Shown here piece by piece: positions 3,889 to 21,212 of a stretch of 48,237 nucleotides of DNA (the first letter of the stretch is position 1; every line of letters starts with the position of its first letter). A model generated the notes under the pieces. That model was given only the letters and a program-made list of their open reading frames with translations, did not search any database and was not told the origin of the DNA. The DNA is from an uncultured Campylobacterales bacterium (GTDB taxonomy: Bacteria > Campylobacterota > Campylobacteria > Campylobacterales > QNZT01), in NCBI GenBank assembly GCA_964447385.1, contig CAYUSV010000003.1, forward strand, positions 1 to 48,237. Direction: 5' to 3'. The position numbers were made by a program, and so were the translations under genes.

Positions 3889-3963
3889 GTACTCTAAAAA
3901 TTAAGACTCATTAAATAAAAAATAGTGTATATTAATTTTGATATTATAAAAGAGGAAAGAGTT

Positions 3964-4725
3964 ATGTTGAAAAGTTTATTTATGGGTTCTGTCGTATTGT
4001 CTGTGATATTAACAGGTTGTGTAGATGATGGTGGATGTTGCGGTATTCAAGCACTACAAGAAAATAGTGTTGAACCATCTGGAAACATGACACCTATTGC
4101 AAATTTTGAAAATTTAAAAATTGTTTCAACTGATATTGGTTGTCAATTTAGTGCAGATGGATCAGCGAGTAAAGATAGTGATGGTAATATCTCCTCTTAT
4201 GTTTGGACTATAGATACAGCTGAAGTTTCAACAGTTATAAATCCAACTAATGTATCTATAGCTTGTGATATAACAACATCTGATCCAATAGTATGTTTAA
4301 GTGTTGTAGATGATAAAAATGCATCAAGTATTTCAAAATGTACAACGGTGAAAATAACTGGTAATTTAGAGCCAAAATCTGAACCAAAACCAACACTTTT
4401 TCCGCCTACTGCTGTGATTGGTTATACTAAAGCAGTTGGTGAAGAGGCGTATTATTTTAATTGTAATGAGAGTTATGATAATGATGCTATTGATAGTGAC
4501 AATAATCCTGAAAACGATAACGGAGTTATTAGTTGCCACTGGACGATATTTAAAACAGATTTTGATGGAAGTACAACAGAAATACCACATGAAGAAGATG
4601 GATTTTTAAAATGGGTTTTAACATCGCCTGACAAATACTCAGCTCTTCAAGTGACACTTAAAGTTGTTGATGATGATAATCAAAGTGGGACAATAACAAA
4701 CAGTTATAAGTTGTCTAAAGATTAA
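3964..4725 (+). CDS. Cys-rich lipoprotein with two PKD/Ig-like domains
   Basis: ATG 3964 follows GAGG; lipobox LTG-C; PKD-type motifs PIA..DGSASKDSDGNISSYVW and PPTA..SYDND..VISCHW..VTLKVVDDD; ORF track uses upstream GTG 3925. Confidence 0.65.
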   Translation: MLKSLFMGSVVLSVILTGCVDDGGCCGIQALQENSVEPSGNMTPIANFENLKIVSTDIGCQFSADGSASKDSDGNISSYVWTIDTAEVSTVINPTNVSIACDITTSDPIVCLSVVDDKNASSISKCTTVKITGNLEPKSEPKPTLFPPTAVIGYTKAVGEEAYYFNCNESYDNDAIDSDNNPENDNGVISCHWTIFKTDFDGSTTEIPHEEDGFLKWVLTSPDKYSALQVTLKVVDDDNQSGTITNSYKLSKD

Positions 4726-4751: not shown

Positions 4752-5678
4752 ATGAAAAAATATCTTCTAATAGTTCTACTGTTTATTTTTGGTTCTATAA
4801 ATTTGCATGGGGAGAGGAAAAAAGTGGAGTTTAAAAAGTTAACAGCTGAGGAGGAGCAGGTTATTGTGCATAAAGATACAGAGATGCCCTATAGCGGAAA
4901 GTATGATAAATTTTATGAAAAAGGAGTATATAAGTGCAAAAGATGTGGAGTTTCACTATATAATTCATCAGACAAATTTAACTCTGGTTGTGGATGGCCT
5001 AGCTTTGATGATGAGATAGATGGTGCCATCAAAAGAGTTCCAGATGTTGACGGTAAGCGTATAGAAATCGTTTGTGCAAATTGTGATGGACATTTGGGGC
5101 ATGTGTTTGAAGGAGAACAATTTACGCCTAAAAATAGTAGACATTGTGTTAACTCTATCTCGATAGAGTTTGAATCGGCAACAAAACAAAATAGTAAAAA
5201 AACATATTTTGCCGGTGGGTGTTTTTGGGGTATTGAGTACCATTTTGAAAAAATACCAGGCGTTATCTCTGCTGATAGTGGCTACATGGGAGGGTATAAA
5301 AAAAACCCAACTTATAAAGAGGTAATTAGTGTAAATACAGGACATTTAGAAGTTGTTGAAGTGACTTACGATCCTTCAAAAGTTAGCTTTGAGACTTTAA
5401 CAAGACTATTTTTTGAGATCCACGATCCTACACAAGCAAATGGTCAAGGCCCAGATATCGGTAGTCAATACCTTTCTGCAATTTTTTATAATAATGAACA
5501 AGAAAAAGAGGTATCTAAAAAGTTGATAGATATCTTAGAGTTAAAAGGGTTGAGAATTGCTACAAATTTAATTGACGCTAAAAAACACCCATTTTATGCG
5601 GCTGAAGATTATCATCAAGATTATTATAAAAAACATAACAAAGAGCCATACTGTCATAGCTATGTTAAAAGATTTTAG
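4752..5678 (+). CDS. msrAB: Bifunctional methionine sulfoxide reductase, MsrB N-terminal and MsrA C-terminal
   Basis: MsrB motifs GCGWPSF, HLGHVF, RHCVNS plus two CxxC; MsrA motifs GGCFWG, QYLSAIF, AEDYHQDY; possible signal peptide. Confidence 0.93.
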   Translation: MKKYLLIVLLFIFGSINLHGERKKVEFKKLTAEEEQVIVHKDTEMPYSGKYDKFYEKGVYKCKRCGVSLYNSSDKFNSGCGWPSFDDEIDGAIKRVPDVDGKRIEIVCANCDGHLGHVFEGEQFTPKNSRHCVNSISIEFESATKQNSKKTYFAGGCFWGIEYHFEKIPGVISADSGYMGGYKKNPTYKEVISVNTGHLEVVEVTYDPSKVSFETLTRLFFEIHDPTQANGQGPDIGSQYLSAIFYNNEQEKEVSKKLIDILELKGLRIATNLIDAKKHPFYAAEDYHQDYYKKHNKEPYCHSYVKRF

Positions 5679-5681
5679 CAT

Positions 5682-5702
5682 GGGGAGAAATTATTTCTCC
5701 TC
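5682..5702. terminator. Hairpin between convergent genes, probable bidirectional terminator
   Basis: GGGGAGAAA-TTA-TTTCTCCTC stem-loop filling the short gap between msrAB and the minus-strand operon. Confidence 0.55.
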
Positions 5703-5703
5703 C

Positions 5704-6456
5704 TTATTGTAAAAGTTTCTCTTTGAGTTGTAGTAGTTGCGTTTTGTAGCTTTGTATCTTATCTCTATTGTCTTCTATACTTTGAACCATTGCATCATAT
5801 TGGGTTTGTAGCTTTGATCTAAGTTTCGTGATGCCCTTTGTTGTATCGGCTAATTGGGATTTTTTATCATCAATTGTTGCAGCAAGGGCTAATTTTTTTG
5901 TAGTCAATGTAAAGTTCTCTTTTTTGAGCTCTTCTGCTTCATTGTGCAATCCTTTATACGAGTCATATTTTTGTTGATACAGTATAGTTTTATCAGATAG
6001 ATCCTGTTTAAGTGTAGTTTTATAATCATCAATTTTTGTTATATCTTCTAGGTTCAACACTGTTTTGAGTGATTTTATCTCTTTTGTATTGTTGCCTAAA
6101 ATATCTGTCTGTTTTTGGTATACACTTTTAAGATCTGTGGTTTTTGTCTCTACTGTTAATTTATCTATTTCAAGCTTATTAATCTCATCTTTAAATTTTG
6201 CTATTGTTGTATCTGCGTTGTTTGATTTTTCATCATACTCTTTAATTTTAGCTATATTTTTATCTTTTTTCATCATTATGGAGTTTGAGTTTAATTTGTG
6301 AGTGTCAATTTTCTGTTTTAATCCACTGATTGCTGGTTTATGTGTTTGATAGGCTTTTAATTTGGTATATAAATAACCAAAAACAAGCCCAGCTCCAAGT
6401 GCTGTGGCCAAACAAATTTTCATATCATTTATCAAATTTATTAAGATATCAGTCAT
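5704..6456 (-). CDS. Single-pass membrane coiled-coil protein (ArfB/ArfC-like N-terminus)
   Basis: N-terminal hydrophobic helix ICLATALGAGLVFGYLY followed by ~220 aa K/E/Q/L-rich helical sequence; last gene of a tightly packed operon. Confidence 0.7.
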   Translation of the reverse strand: MTDILINLINDMKICLATALGAGLVFGYLYTKLKAYQTHKPAISGLKQKIDTHKLNSNSIMMKKDKNIAKIKEYDEKSNNADTTIAKFKDEINKLEIDKLTVETKTTDLKSVYQKQTDILGNNTKEIKSLKTVLNLEDITKIDDYKTTLKQDLSDKTILYQQKYDSYKGLHNEAEELKKENFTLTTKKLALAATIDDKKSQLADTTKGITKLRSKLQTQYDAMVQSIEDNRDKIQSYKTQLLQLKEKLLQ

Positions 6457-6458
6457 GG

Positions 6459-7295
6459 TTATCTCCCTTGTTTAATATATTTTGCACTTGCACTGAAGAG
6501 TTTCTGTTTTAAGTTGGCAAAGAAACCTTTCTCTTCATTTTTGTTGATAATTTTATCTACAACATCAAAAGCGACTTTTTCACCGGCATCTACCTTCTCA
6601 TTGATATATTTGAATGCATACTCATAGTTGAGAGCTTTTTGTTTTGTCTCTTTGATATCATTAAAAATTTCAGACTTTTTAGTATCAAACTCATCTTCAA
6701 TCTCTTTTGTTTTTTTATTCTCTATTTTGATCTCTTCTTCCATCTCATCGATACCCTTTTTAAGATTTGTTATCTTAGTTTCCAAGGAGGCTCGCTCATC
6801 GATCAATTGTGGAATCTGTTGGCTTAAAGTTTCAATCTCTCTGTTTTTATCTGTTGTTTTTTGCGCATAGTCTCTGATTTGATCTTTTTGTTCTAAAATT
6901 TCATCTCTGTTTAAGGTTAATACATTTAACTCATTTGAAGCTATTTTTATTTTTTCATCAATAGAATTGAAATTTTCTTGGAGCTTTTTTTGTACGAGGT
7001 TTAAATTTTCACAGTCAATTTTTAATCTACTGCTTTGATCTGTAAGATCTGAAATAAAGTTTTCTTTAGAGCTATTTTTATCTTTAATTTGGAAGAGTTG
7101 CTTTTCGCTGTTTTCAAAGTTAAAAGAGGCACGGTTTAACTCTTCTAATGCTATTTTGTCACTATTTACAAGTTTATAAAATTTTTCCTTATATCCTTTT
7201 CGATATGTTTGTCGTCTTAAGATCCACCCGATACTAAAACCTATCAACAGTGCAATTACCATCAACAAAATCATATATAACTCCAGTGTTGTCAT
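6459..7295 (-). CDS. Single-pass membrane coiled-coil protein (ArfB/ArfC-like N-terminus)
   Basis: TM helix LYMILLMVIALLIGFSIGWIL followed by basic RRQTYRK and a long heptad-like region; AGGAG SD within the end of the upstream gene. Confidence 0.72.
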   Translation of the reverse strand: MTTLELYMILLMVIALLIGFSIGWILRRQTYRKGYKEKFYKLVNSDKIALEELNRASFNFENSEKQLFQIKDKNSSKENFISDLTDQSSRLKIDCENLNLVQKKLQENFNSIDEKIKIASNELNVLTLNRDEILEQKDQIRDYAQKTTDKNREIETLSQQIPQLIDERASLETKITNLKKGIDEMEEEIKIENKKTKEIEDEFDTKKSEIFNDIKETKQKALNYEYAFKYINEKVDAGEKVAFDVVDKIINKNEEKGFFANLKQKLFSASAKYIKQGR

Positions 7296-7296
7296 G

Positions 7297-8331
7297 CTAC
7301 TCTCCTCTTTTTAAGTGTATTTCAACACGTCTGTTGATTGTATTACTTGGATTTTCATAGATAGGTCTCTCTTCACCATAACCTACAGCTTCAATTTGTA
7401 GACTCTGTAATTCATTGTTTAAAAGATATTTTTTGACAGCATCTGCTCTTTTTTGACTAAGTGTTTTGTTGTAGTTGGCATCTCCTCTTGAGTCTGTATG
7501 CCCTTCAATGGTAAGTGATATATTATCAAGTTTGTTAACAGTTGTGATAATTTTATCAAGGATTGCTTTACTCTTTGAAGTGATTTTATCACTATTAAAT
7601 TTAAAATAGATTGGATTAGTCTTCAAAAGTTCATTAACTTCACTCTGTGTTTTTTCTATCATTTTTGGTTCTTCTAACACTTTTTTTTCAGGTACTTCAG
7701 CTATCTCAACTTCTTGCTCTTTTTCTATTGTCTCTGGTAAGATCTTGGTAATCTTTGGTGTAATTGTTGTGAGGTTTTGTATCTCAAAAATTTTTGGGTT
7801 AAATGATTTTAAAAGAGTGATTAAAATTTTTGCCTCTTCATCATCTTTTAGTTCGCCTTCAAGTTTAACGAGATAACCATCTATCAATATAGTGCCATTT
7901 TTAATATTTTTATCTTTGAGAAATGAGGCGATTTTTATAGCATCACTTTGCCAAGTGGCATCTTTTACATTTTTATCAAACGATAAATCTTGTGTACATG
8001 TGTCACTTTGACAATACTCCAGTATAAATTTTTCTAAAATTTGATTTTTGTCACTTATAGATAGTTTGGCACTAAGTGCTTTACCGTCTTTTGTACTATA
8101 AACAAACATTGGCTGGTCAGGCTCTGCGCTCTGTATAGGCTCTGGGATTGGTACAGGTTCTGATTTGGGAGTTGGGATGGGCTTAGATTTTACTGATGCT
8201 TGTAATGGTGTAATTTTTCCTGCTAATTGGTCATATTTGGTTAAAAGATGGTCCCTGTTTTCATTGATACATTTATATGTTAAAAATGCACCTGCTAACA
8301 GACTAAGTAGTAGGATAAGTTTGCTTCCCAT
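7297..8331 (-). CDS. OmpA-family peptidoglycan-binding protein with N-terminal anchor, Pro-rich linker and BON-like middle region (ArfA/Rv0899-like architecture)
   Basis: OmpA_C motifs IYFKFNS, IEGHTD, NKTLSQKRADAV, GYGE..P, NRRVEI; middle segment ILIDGYLVKLEGEL..IQNLTTI resembles a BON lobe. Confidence 0.85.
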   Translation of the reverse strand: MGSKLILLLSLLAGAFLTYKCINENRDHLLTKYDQLAGKITPLQASVKSKPIPTPKSEPVPIPEPIQSAEPDQPMFVYSTKDGKALSAKLSISDKNQILEKFILEYCQSDTCTQDLSFDKNVKDATWQSDAIKIASFLKDKNIKNGTILIDGYLVKLEGELKDDEEAKILITLLKSFNPKIFEIQNLTTITPKITKILPETIEKEQEVEIAEVPEKKVLEEPKMIEKTQSEVNELLKTNPIYFKFNSDKITSKSKAILDKIITTVNKLDNISLTIEGHTDSRGDANYNKTLSQKRADAVKKYLLNNELQSLQIEAVGYGEERPIYENPSNTINRRVEIHLKRGE

Positions 8332-8437
8332 GGCATGCTCCTGATAGTAGTTTCAAGTTTTTGTACTAAAATTATAATGCGCAATTGTACATCATATGAC
8401 CTTTAAGTCAATAATTAAGTATTAGAAGACAACAATT

Positions 8438-8476: not shown

Positions 8477-9031
8477 TTGTCATTTTTATACGATAAACAC
8501 TCACATTTTAATTTAGCCAATTTAGTGACTTTTTCAAATATAAGTGCAGGTATCATAGCTTTGTATTTTATACAAGAGGGTAATTTTTTTATAGCTATTG
8601 TGTTGGCTTGGATTGCTGGTGGACTTGATATACTTGATGGAAAGATTGCTAGAAAATACAATCTTTCATGTGAGTTTGGTATACAAATCGACTCATTCGC
8701 TGATTTTATCTCTTTTGTTGTGATGCCGTCATTTTTGCTTTTTTATGCAATACAAAAAGATAGTGGTTTTGAGACATTTGTAGTAGGTATAGTTTGTATC
8801 TACTATATAATAAGCGGTTTAAGAAGATTGATAGAATTTAATATCCAAAGTAAAGAGGGTGAAGTTGCAAAATATTTTATCGGAGTTCCAACACCCTTAG
8901 GTGCGATACTCCTATGGGTGCTTTATCTAGTCTATTCATATGATGCTATCACAAGTTTATATCTGTTGTTACCGTTAATTGCAATAGTTGCATATTTATT
9001 AAACTCAAAGGTAAAAATTCCACATCCATAA
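8477..9031 (+). CDS. pssA: CDP-alcohol phosphatidyltransferase, phosphatidylserine synthase-like
   Basis: Signature DILDGKIAR..FGIQIDSFADFISF; RL..FN and FIGVPTP motifs; TTG start after AAGG. Confidence 0.8.
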   Translation: MSFLYDKHSHFNLANLVTFSNISAGIIALYFIQEGNFFIAIVLAWIAGGLDILDGKIARKYNLSCEFGIQIDSFADFISFVVMPSFLLFYAIQKDSGFETFVVGIVCIYYIISGLRRLIEFNIQSKEGEVAKYFIGVPTPLGAILLWVLYLVYSYDAITSLYLLLPLIAIVAYLLNSKVKIPHP

Positions 9032-20446: not shown

Positions 20447-20809
20447 ATGGCTAGGATTTCTGGTGTAGATTTACCAAAAAAGAAGAGAATTGAGTATGGA
20501 CTTACTTATATTTTTGGGATCGGTTTAAAAAGTTCGCGTGATATTTTGACAAAAGCTGGTATTTCGTTTGATAAAAGAGTACATGAGCTAAGTGAAGATG
20601 AAGTTGCGAGTATTCGTAAAGAGATTCAAGCGGATTATAGAGTAGAGGGTGATCTTAGAAAACAAGTTGCTATGGATATCAAAAGTCTTATGGATTTAGG
20701 TAGTTATAGAGGACTTAGACATAGAAAAGGTTTACCGGTTCGTGGACAAAAAACAAAAACAAATGCAAGAACAAGAAAAGGCAGAAAAAAGACTGTCGGC
20801 TCGGCATAG
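20447..20809 (+). CDS. rpsM: 30S ribosomal protein S13
   Basis: [36 protein letters not shown]. Confidence 0.99.
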
Positions 20810-20819
20810 GGAGTAGGGT

Positions 20820-21212
20820 ATGGCAAAAAGAAGAGTTACTAGAAAAAAAGTTGCAAAGAAAAATATAGCTAAAGGTATTGTCCATATTGCTGCTACATTT
20901 AACAATACAGTTGTTACTATTACAGATGAGATGGGCAATGTTATCGCTTGGAGTAGTGCAGGAAGTCTTGGTTTTAAGGGTAGTAAAAAATCGACTCCTT
21001 ATGCTGCACAAGAGGCGGTGGATGCAGCTATAGCAAAAGCAATGGATCATGGTATTAAAGAGGTTGGAATTAAAGTTCAAGGGCCAGGTTCTGGTCGTGA
21101 AACTGCAGTAAAAAGAGTTGGTGCTATTGAAGGTATAAGAGTTTATTTCTTTAAAGATGTAACTCCACTTCCACATAATGGCTGTAGACCGCCAAAACGA
21201 AGAAGAGTGTAG
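20820..21212 (+). CDS. rpsK: 30S ribosomal protein S11
   Basis: [33 protein letters not shown]. Confidence 0.99.

Follow-up and report, generated by a model that had tools for sequence, protein, structure and literature searches.

A conserved three-gene module of a Campylobacterales lineage encodes a peptidoglycan-binding membrane anchor and two paralogous coiled-coil proteins that may form a wall-pinned scaffold

We analysed a 48,237-nucleotide (nt) stretch of DNA from an uncultured Campylobacterales bacterium (GenBank assembly GCA_964447385.1, contig CAYUSV010000003.1, positions 1 to 48,237 of the forward strand; hereafter the window) and identified a conserved module of three genes. These genes, here called the triad, lie head to tail on the minus strand (Table 1) and encode a membrane protein with a wall-binding domain (gene 1, the anchor) and two membrane-anchored coiled-coil proteins, or rods (gene 2, CC1; gene 3, CC2). 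We give an even chance to the reading that the triad forms an inner-membrane complex pinned to peptidoglycan and tethering cytoplasmic scaffolds, comparable to a PodJ- or HubP-type landmark protein split over several polypeptides. An earlier note, made from the letters of this DNA, had described the genes as an ArfABC-like trans-envelope operon. The tight spacing on which it relied was confirmed by the coordinates of the open reading frames (ORFs), with intergenic gaps of 1 nt and 2 nt; what it missed is that the two rods are paralogues and that the triad is one of four modules in the genome.

The anchor contains a single hydrophobic window (residues 5–23), with none past residue 60, and in the structure model the corresponding helix is continuous through residues 2–24. 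It is followed by a proline-rich stretch (residues 39–71) that was modelled as unstructured, with a predicted local distance difference test score (pLDDT) below 50 for residues 38–51 and 54–56, then by the middle domain, a second linker (residues 203–219) that is disordered in the model, and a C-terminal OmpA_C domain. The latter is complete (PF00691, E 2.8e-26, 92.2 bits against a cut-off of 27.2, profile positions 1–93 of 98), so that the membrane helix, the two linkers and the full OmpA_C domain of the earlier note were borne out by hydrophobicity, model and Pfam. Anchor length ranges from 317 to 410 amino acids (aa) among relatives because the linkers vary. Structural comparison of the whole gene 1 model gave a list filled by OmpA_C domains that added nothing on the middle domain. 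The best match to the OmpA_C domain was 5wtl (Z 17.5); the C domain of Mycobacterium Rv0899 scored Z 15.5, and the Acinetobacter baumannii OmpA-like domain bound to wall peptide or diaminopimelate (3td5, 3td4) scored Z 13.1–13.5. In OmpA-like domains a conserved Asp and Arg contact diaminopimelate, and the core that is invariant among 37 orthologues comprises T279, D280, G283, N288, L291, S292, Q293, R295 and A296.

At the predicted periplasmic end of the anchor helix lies Cys21 (codon 8269–8271), which is invariant in 37/37 orthologues. More widely, a Cys occupies the helix edge in 33 of the 35 distinct ORFs that match a profile of the middle domain, and the two without it are weak matches (L050 and L081). 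A Pal-type outer-membrane lipoprotein was considered and rejected: the lipobox rule calls for a small residue ahead of the Cys, the residue preceding C21 in orthologues is K, M, V, T, F, L, S or Y, and the model helix runs through residues 2–24. The anchor was likewise rejected as a stator subunit of the MotB/PomB type. Such stators carry a conserved acidic residue in the membrane helix and have an adjacent MotA-type gene; the helix of gene 1 is without Asp or Glu, and no MotA-type gene neighbours it.

The middle domain was confidently modelled, with mean pLDDT of 88–97 in ten-residue blocks over residues 71–190, and its elements run strand-strand-helix-strand, then helix-strand-strand-helix-strand. 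This second lobe (helix 128–140, strands 144–151 and 154–161, helix 164–174, strand 183–190) has the order of the BON fold, the helix-strand-strand-helix-strand topology described in the available text of PMC7806268. Foldseek with the whole gene 1 model ranked the two-domain Rv0899 structure 2l26 first (E 3.5e-10); with the middle domain alone it returned nothing at E <= 0.001, the Rv0899 entries being at the top with 1e-2. The middle domain was also modelled by itself (pLDDT 74), and this model was aligned to 48,161 representative solved chains. The first-ranked chain was again 2l26 (Z 8.5, root-mean-square deviation 4.3, 122 of 126 residues aligned, chain residues 76–208) and the second was the isolated B domain of Rv0899, 2ksm (Z 7.1). 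The next matches covered lobe 2 only and were BON and ring-building folds (CdsD, DolP, YscD, OsmY and BonA) at Z 4.6–5.4. The values are modest, and folds of this type are common. Because a Z of 8.5 is close to the tool's stated background for best matches, the fold assignment is supported and homology is not proven; identity between gene 1 and Rv0899 is 12–19% in the structural alignments. The earlier note had placed two BON-like lobes in this region, which holds at the level of the fold (the model, and 2l26 at Z 8.5) and fails in sequence, both by Pfam BON and by profile-profile comparison. Its claim of an ArfA-like architecture for gene 1 is upheld by the first place of 2l26 in both searches, since the middle-domain fold best matches the Rv0899 B domain.

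Conserved positions of the middle domain in the 37-orthologue alignment are C107 and C112, which form a C-x4-C pair, and G159; a conserved glycine is also a feature of BON domains. One orthologue of the anchor (L008, G017:C14, 606–1493) is without the otherwise invariant C-x4-C pair, and its gene overlaps the next by 14 nt. Trp127 of gene 1 stands just ahead of the first helix of lobe 2 and is invariant in nine aligned middle domains. According to the available text of PMC7806268, BON2 of DolP binds anionic phospholipid via helix alpha1, with Trp W127 as key residue. A paralogue of the anchor on another contig of this genome (C58) has the same N-terminal helix with Cys, the same kind of partner and a Pfam BON match at E 3.8e-11, which offers an independent hint of a BON relation for the middle domain.

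The likeness to Rv0899 raises the question of whether the triad is a functional equivalent of ArfABC (the ompATb operon), acting in ammonia release and acid adaptation with genes 2 and 3 in the places of ArfB and ArfC; we regard this as very improbable. Gene 1 does follow the Rv0899 order of membrane anchor, six-strand and three-helix B domain, and OmpA_C (architecture as given in the available text of PMC6151718), and Rv0899 is likewise co-transcribed with two further genes (PMC12183614, in the text available). The identity to Rv0899 is nevertheless low, interchangeable cytoplasmic heads (DUF4332, DUF2853) on the partners do not suggest a solute pathway, and no transporter or ammonia-related gene is kept beside the module in the compared loci. 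ArfB and ArfC are membrane proteins much shorter than genes 2 and 3 and, to our knowledge, are not coiled coils; their equivalence to genes 2 and 3 is unlikely. The role of rv0900 and rv0901 is itself termed elusive in the available text of PMC12183614. An ArfABC-like acid role draws on the architecture of gene 1 and on nothing else in the module.

Genes 2 and 3 each have one N-terminal hydrophobic window (residues 8–26) and heptad periodicity over most of the remainder, nearly to the end. Searches with both proteins gave compositional matches only, to the coiled-coil arms of SMC, Rad50, JetC and LmuB, and no catalytic family was matched, in agreement with the earlier description of one N-terminal helix each followed by coiled coil. 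In the ESM Atlas CC1 matched unnamed clusters only (0.86–0.90). The lengths of the rods are near constant among relatives (CC1, 277–279 aa in 8 of 10; CC2, 249–250 aa in 7 of 10) and conservation is concentrated at the protein ends. CC1 keeps a helix with a small-residue G-x3-G pattern, without a Cys at the helix edge, and a C-terminal block. With an 11-residue window, the tail of 8 of 10 orthologues has its highest hydrophobic moment in this block, which is usually basic and is possibly a membrane-binding helix like those of MinD and FtsA. The features conserved in CC2 are a short stub at the N terminus, an invariant Cys where the helix begins, and a juxtamembrane Y-K/E-P-x-I-x-x-L motif.

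Within the 15 residues after the helix we counted seven Lys or Arg residues in gene 2 and three in gene 3, against none before it. The same bias towards the residues after the helix was present in all relatives compared (25/25 Cys-anchor partners and 10/10 CC1 orthologues). Because of these counts the tails are predicted to be cytoplasmic, as the earlier note had argued from the positive-inside rule, and the short N termini would lie outside. Helix-hairpin-helix domains are cytoplasmic nucleic-acid binders, and a cytoplasmic location of the tails fits the helix-hairpin-helix (DUF4332) heads found on a paralogous partner. The opposite arrangement is very improbable; in it the coiled coils would lie in the periplasm and, together with the OmpA-type anchor, space or connect the inner membrane, the wall and the outer membrane in the manner of TolA, CpoB or Lpp. 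It has in its favour that an OmpA_C partner and long helical proteins co-occur in the Tol-Pal neighbourhood, and that the Cys residues and the conserved N-terminal stub place part of each partner on the periplasmic side. Against it stand the charge counts, which put the tail in the cytoplasm in 35/35 partners examined, the helix-hairpin-helix ends of paralogous tails, and the length of a coiled coil of ~220 residues, which at ~30 nm if straight exceeds the width of the periplasm. The anchor would be bitopic with a cytoplasmic N terminus, because its OmpA_C domain must reach the wall; the charge count is not decisive for this protein. With the rods inserted tail-in and the anchor in this orientation, Cys21 of the anchor and Cys15 of CC2 would both fall at the periplasmic face, which suggests that a disulfide may link them.

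We found that the CC1 and CC2 profiles match each other (3e-07 and 1e-07), and that a 500-aa single partner encoded on contig C39 of this genome matches both of them (1e-15 and 2e-14). The N-terminal anchors of CC2 and the single partners (n=25) can be aligned; L16 and G23 do not vary among them, and 24 have C15. On the evidence of these profiles genes 2 and 3 are diverged duplicates of one ancestral partner, and the ancestral unit is a pair, consisting of an anchor with membrane helix, Cys, BON or BON-like domain and OmpA domain and a coiled-coil protein with a Cys-bearing membrane helix. A division of labour after the duplication is likely because CC1 has the C-terminal helix without the Cys and CC2 has the Cys and the juxtamembrane motif; the rods look as though they split the ancestral features between them.

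In addition to the triad, this genome carries three modules, on contigs C39, C58 and C86. The C39 module (L041, 3156–5908, minus strand) consists of an anchor with the same middle domain and a partner ending in DUF2853 (E 2.5e-15). It lies directly downstream of nrdA (792 aa) and purB, a placement that recurs in several genera (L042, L045–L049), and its genomic context is thus conserved, in contrast to that of the triad. The C58 module (L052, 4317–6105, minus strand) pairs a canonical BON-OmpA anchor with a partner whose C-terminal end is formed by two DUF4332 helix-hairpin-helix domains (E 4.9e-43). That partner contains near-identical tandem repeats of ~60 aa; its gene is broken by a run of N in the assembly, and the DUF4332 pair follows the gap. 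The C86 module (L053, 3216–4609, plus strand) is a reduced one and comprises a 233-aa protein with an N-terminal helix and Cys, without OmpA_C or any other Pfam domain, and, 5 nt after its gene, that of a 228-aa Cys-helix coiled-coil protein. The predicted cytoplasmic end therefore varies by module, being a basic amphipathic helix, DUF2853 or two DUF4332 domains.

CC1 was identified in 18 of 41 related genomes, all of them in one family (f1). Co-occurrence of the three genes in other genomes, on which the earlier note had let its proposal depend, was found: the triad is present in the same order in 6/6 other genomes of the genus, CC1 included, and in further genera of the family, at CC1 identities of 21–50%. 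Because the order recurs in this way, the three-gene set is not a product of chance, and the variation of the flanking genes between genomes marks the module itself as the conserved unit. The profile of the middle domain was searched in 401 sampled genomes of the order, some of them incomplete, so that not finding a match does not mean absence. It matched 35 of the 401, including 28/31 genomes of f1, 4/4 of f24, 1/39 of f6 and 1/11 of f11, whereas none was obtained in the order's 22 other families. In f11 the match (E 5e-4) is probably false, since the ORF is without helix and Cys. In this sample the module is almost confined to two families, and the earlier note's wording of a Campylobacterota version was too broad.

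Genomes with a match to the middle-domain profile often carry two or three copies. Of the 35 distinct ORFs matching this profile in the loci compared, 34 have directly behind them an ORF that encodes a membrane helix at its N terminus. A single-protein query detected the canonical BON paralogue in f1 only (16/31); a Cys-helix ORF comes next in 25 of 26 rows, some of which are loci that overlap at one and the same gene. Adjacency has been kept through at least three rounds of module duplication and through divergence to below 25% identity. We also ran a 70-residue profile of the partner anchor against 1.84 billion representative proteins, which gave 256 proteins at E <= 0.001, of which 68 reached E <= 1e-10; the match was at the extreme N terminus in nearly all of the 150 matches listed. 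Among the listed matches of at least 280 aa (n=44), 6 end in DUF2853 and 36 are without a Pfam domain at E <= 1e-6; of the remaining two, one is a coiled-coil protein of 2,976 aa whose matches are compositional and the other has a DUF4407 match below the cut-off. As far as these tools show, the partner family is small and apparently unnamed. No description of the module was found among the papers listed in searches of open-access articles and preprints, subscription journals being mostly outside that coverage, and the module appears to be uncharacterised.

We also weighed a Zorya-like sensor of envelope stress or phage breach, in which a wall-anchored unit would signal damage to an effector by way of a long coiled-coil tail in the cytoplasm. 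Zorya comprises ZorA, a multi-pass protein with a tail, and ZorC/D-type effectors nearby. The arrangement here resembles the ZorAB logic, ZorB models match gene 1 (best E 1.2e-11), and the defence models LmuB and JetC match genes 2 and 3 weakly (PADLOC). The ZorB matches are, however, confined to the generic OmpA_C part (residues 238–340), genes 2 and 3 gave no ZorA match at E <= 0.1, and neither a MotA/ZorA-like multi-pass protein nor a nuclease or ATPase effector is adjacent. Unlike patchy defence islands, the module has housekeeping neighbours, occurs in 28/31 sampled genomes of the family and gives two or three middle-domain matches per genome. A sensor of this kind is highly unlikely, and a defence island was rejected for this locus, which has housekeeping genes around it and no effector.

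The gene order with its conservation, the domains and the paralogy are observed; topology, binding, the disulfide and the cellular role are inferred. On this footing, the arrangement that we favour would be built as follows. The periplasmic part of the anchor, a diverged double-BON domain followed by OmpA_C, would bind peptidoglycan through the latter, and the BON-like domain may touch the outer leaflet in the way that DolP BON2 does via its first helix and Trp. The rods would be inserted the opposite way, with a short N terminus outside, one helix and ~220–250 residues of coiled coil in the cytoplasm. The anchor helix is proposed to pack against the helices of CC1 and CC2, and a disulfide between Cys21 and Cys15 may join anchor and CC2 on the periplasmic face. 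CC1 would have kept the small-residue helix motif, with its basic amphipathic C-terminal helix probably folding back onto the bilayer, and CC2 the periplasmic-edge Cys and the juxtamembrane motif. Paired, the rods would make up a scaffold beneath the membrane with a length of ~30 nm when straight (estimated from ~220 coiled-coil residues). Fixed to the wall, the complex would be unable to diffuse and could serve to place, or to keep in place, structures in the cytoplasm or associated with the membrane.

Several results weigh against this proposal or parts of it. Gene 1 did not match Pfam BON (PF04972) at E <= 1; none of nine middle domains matched it at E <= 10, with one BON_like match at E 0.17; and profile-profile comparison of the middle domain with the canonical BON-OmpA family gave a probability of 2.5%, which is not significant. 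The anchor has more Lys and Arg after its helix than in its four-residue N terminus in 34 of 37 orthologues, a weak count by which its orientation is not decided. The amphipathicity of the CC1 C-terminal helix was not above background in a 14-residue window. The Cys pair is not universal: the sole exception among the 25 partner anchors is the C39 partner of this very genome, which has Tyr; a Cys occurs in the first 30 residues of 113 of the 150 matches listed for the partner-anchor profile; and L008 is without C-x4-C. Because some partners have no Cys, the disulfide would be at most an optional reinforcement. Finally, prediction of a complex of CC1, CC2 and residues 1–200 of gene 1, with separate alignments and no controls, gave a score of 0.02, which counts neither for nor against binding.

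This last result, an absence of support only, also bears on the reading that the three genes are mere co-transcribed neighbours, with gene 1 a staple between wall and membrane and the rods acting independently, in the manner of EzrA or the RNase Y anchor, and no complex being formed. It agrees with that reading that a small-residue membrane anchor followed by a coiled coil is common in unrelated proteins, and that weak matches to LapA_dom and to the RNase-Y-like PRK12705 were obtained. Independence is nevertheless hard to hold because the adjacency has outlasted several duplications and the divergence that followed them, and we consider it unlikely, although the least improbable of the alternatives weighed here.

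Compared with the wall-pinned triad itself, a wider reading is more tentative: this Campylobacterales lineage might have evolved a modular, multi-copy tether from wall to cytoplasm, with a shared anchor, interchangeable cytoplasmic ends and perhaps a disulfide link. Doubtful as this remains, within it the modules could pin different structures to fixed sites on the wall, for example the nucleoid via the helix-hairpin-helix head. How cytoplasmic structures are fixed in space is understood in few model species, where the landmark proteins are each narrow in range, and the Campylobacterales beyond Helicobacter and Campylobacter are almost unstudied for cell positioning. A conserved multi-copy module with a wall anchor and rods with exchangeable heads is a concrete and testable candidate for such a function. 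In addition, it would place the transmembrane-BON-OmpA architecture, whose role is unclear even in Mycobacterium, in a cellular context and provide a first contextual clue for DUF4332 and DUF2853.

The coordinates of the triad and of features around it are collected in Table 1. A GGAG or GGGAG Shine-Dalgarno-like sequence is present upstream of the ATG of each of the three genes. The triad is one of two minus-strand blocks of ORFs of at least 150 aa in the window, the remaining genes being on the plus strand, and GC skew across the window is negative in the 6001–8000 bin only. The other minus-strand ORF of this size (20715–21176) is without a Pfam match and is possibly not a genuine gene. Upstream of gene 1 the best promoter-like site is a candidate only, because the total for the region (18 sites against 15.0 +/- 4.0 in shuffles) shows no excess. 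The hairpin beyond gene 3 scored as terminator-like on the plus strand only and would presumably serve the minus-strand operon as well.

The convergent neighbour encodes an MsrB-MsrA fusion protein (SelR, E 1.7e-41; PMSR, E 8.2e-58) with a signal-peptide-like hydrophobic N terminus, which may be a periplasmic methionine sulfoxide reductase; the gene is convergent to the triad in the window and in three loci of the same genus (L004–L006). Also on the plus strand, a 266-aa ORF (3925–4725) has no Pfam match at E <= 1e-4; the encoded protein begins like a lipoprotein, continues with a Cys-rich stretch and then has two halves that resemble each other and are rich in Asp and Asn.

Table 1. Features of the triad and its surroundings in the window.
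Feature	Position	Strand	Basis or remark
Gene 1 (anchor), 344 aa	7297..8331	minus	ORF list
Gene 1 membrane helix, aa 5-23	8263..8319	minus	hydrophobic window
Gene 1 middle domain, aa 72-190, six strands and three helices	7762..8118	minus	structure model
Gene 1 OmpA_C peptidoglycan-binding domain, aa 221-342	7306..7671	minus	PF00691
Gene 2 (CC1), 278 aa	6459..7295	minus	ORF list
Gene 2 membrane helix, aa 8-26	7218-7274	minus	
Gene 2 conserved C-terminal motif with basic amphipathic helix, aa ~252-278	6462-6542	minus	
Gene 3 (CC2), 250 aa	5704..6456	minus	ORF list
Gene 3 membrane helix, aa ~14-30	6367-6417	minus	
Gene 3 Cys15 at predicted periplasmic start of helix	6412-6414 (codon)	minus	
Best promoter-like site upstream of gene 1	8384..8411	minus	10/12 consensus matches; candidate only
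G+C-rich hairpin, 9 pairs	5682..5702	.	in 25-nt gap between gene 3 stop and convergent msrB-msrA stop
msrB-msrA fusion gene, convergent to triad	4752-5678	plus	
CDP-alcohol phosphatidyltransferase gene, divergent from triad	8477-9031		

Rv0899 (ArfA/OmpATb) provides the best structural match for the middle domain of gene 1 and, like it, belongs to an operon with two further genes. In the available text of PMC6151718 it consists of an N-terminal membrane anchor, a B domain in which a six-stranded sheet packs against three helices, and a C-terminal OmpA-like domain. It differs from gene 1 in that the middle domain of the latter fails Pfam BON and carries the invariant C-x4-C pair and the helix-edge Cys, and at the level of the operon in that the partners here are coiled-coil proteins of 250–278 aa in a host with a Gram-negative-type envelope. 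The link to ammonia and acid belongs to the Rv0899 operon, the module described here being known from its genes.

DolP, OsmY and BonA share the BON topology with lobe 2 of gene 1 (Z 4.6–5.1), in which a Trp stands ahead of the first helix. They lack OmpA_C and are either lipoproteins of the outer membrane or soluble proteins of the periplasm, whereas gene 1 is anchored by a helix, with no lipobox and no Pfam BON match. MotB, ZorB and TssL resemble gene 1 in combining an N-terminal helix with a C-terminal OmpA_C domain, and models of MotB, MotS, ZorB and TssL match it over residues ~180–343. In contrast to these proteins, gene 1 has a helix without an acidic residue, a BON-like insert and no partner of the MotA/ZorA type; its partners are single-pass coiled-coil proteins.

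The closest functional parallel to the wall-pinned complex that we favour is found in the polar landmark proteins PodJ, HubP/FimV and TipN. The available text of PMC4085708 describes these as integral membrane landmarks that do not form polymers, often with a periplasmic peptidoglycan-binding domain and a cytoplasmic coiled coil or scaffold, with one or two membrane helices and a narrow phylogenetic range. PodJ combines coiled coil, helix and wall-binding domain, HubP combines LysM, helix and cytoplasmic scaffold, and TipN has helices and coiled coil (PMC4085708). The triad brings together a wall-binding domain and coiled coils predicted to be cytoplasmic as well, here only in trans over gene 1 and genes 2 and 3. 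It differs in being made of separate polypeptides with opposite insertion and in using OmpA_C instead of a LysM or muramidase-like domain, with no sequence relationship; the landmark proteins are themselves a functional class, not a homologous family, and are compared here with a module seen so far as genes. If the multi-copy reading is true, the tether system would be a split, multi-copy counterpart of the polar landmark proteins, so far undescribed.

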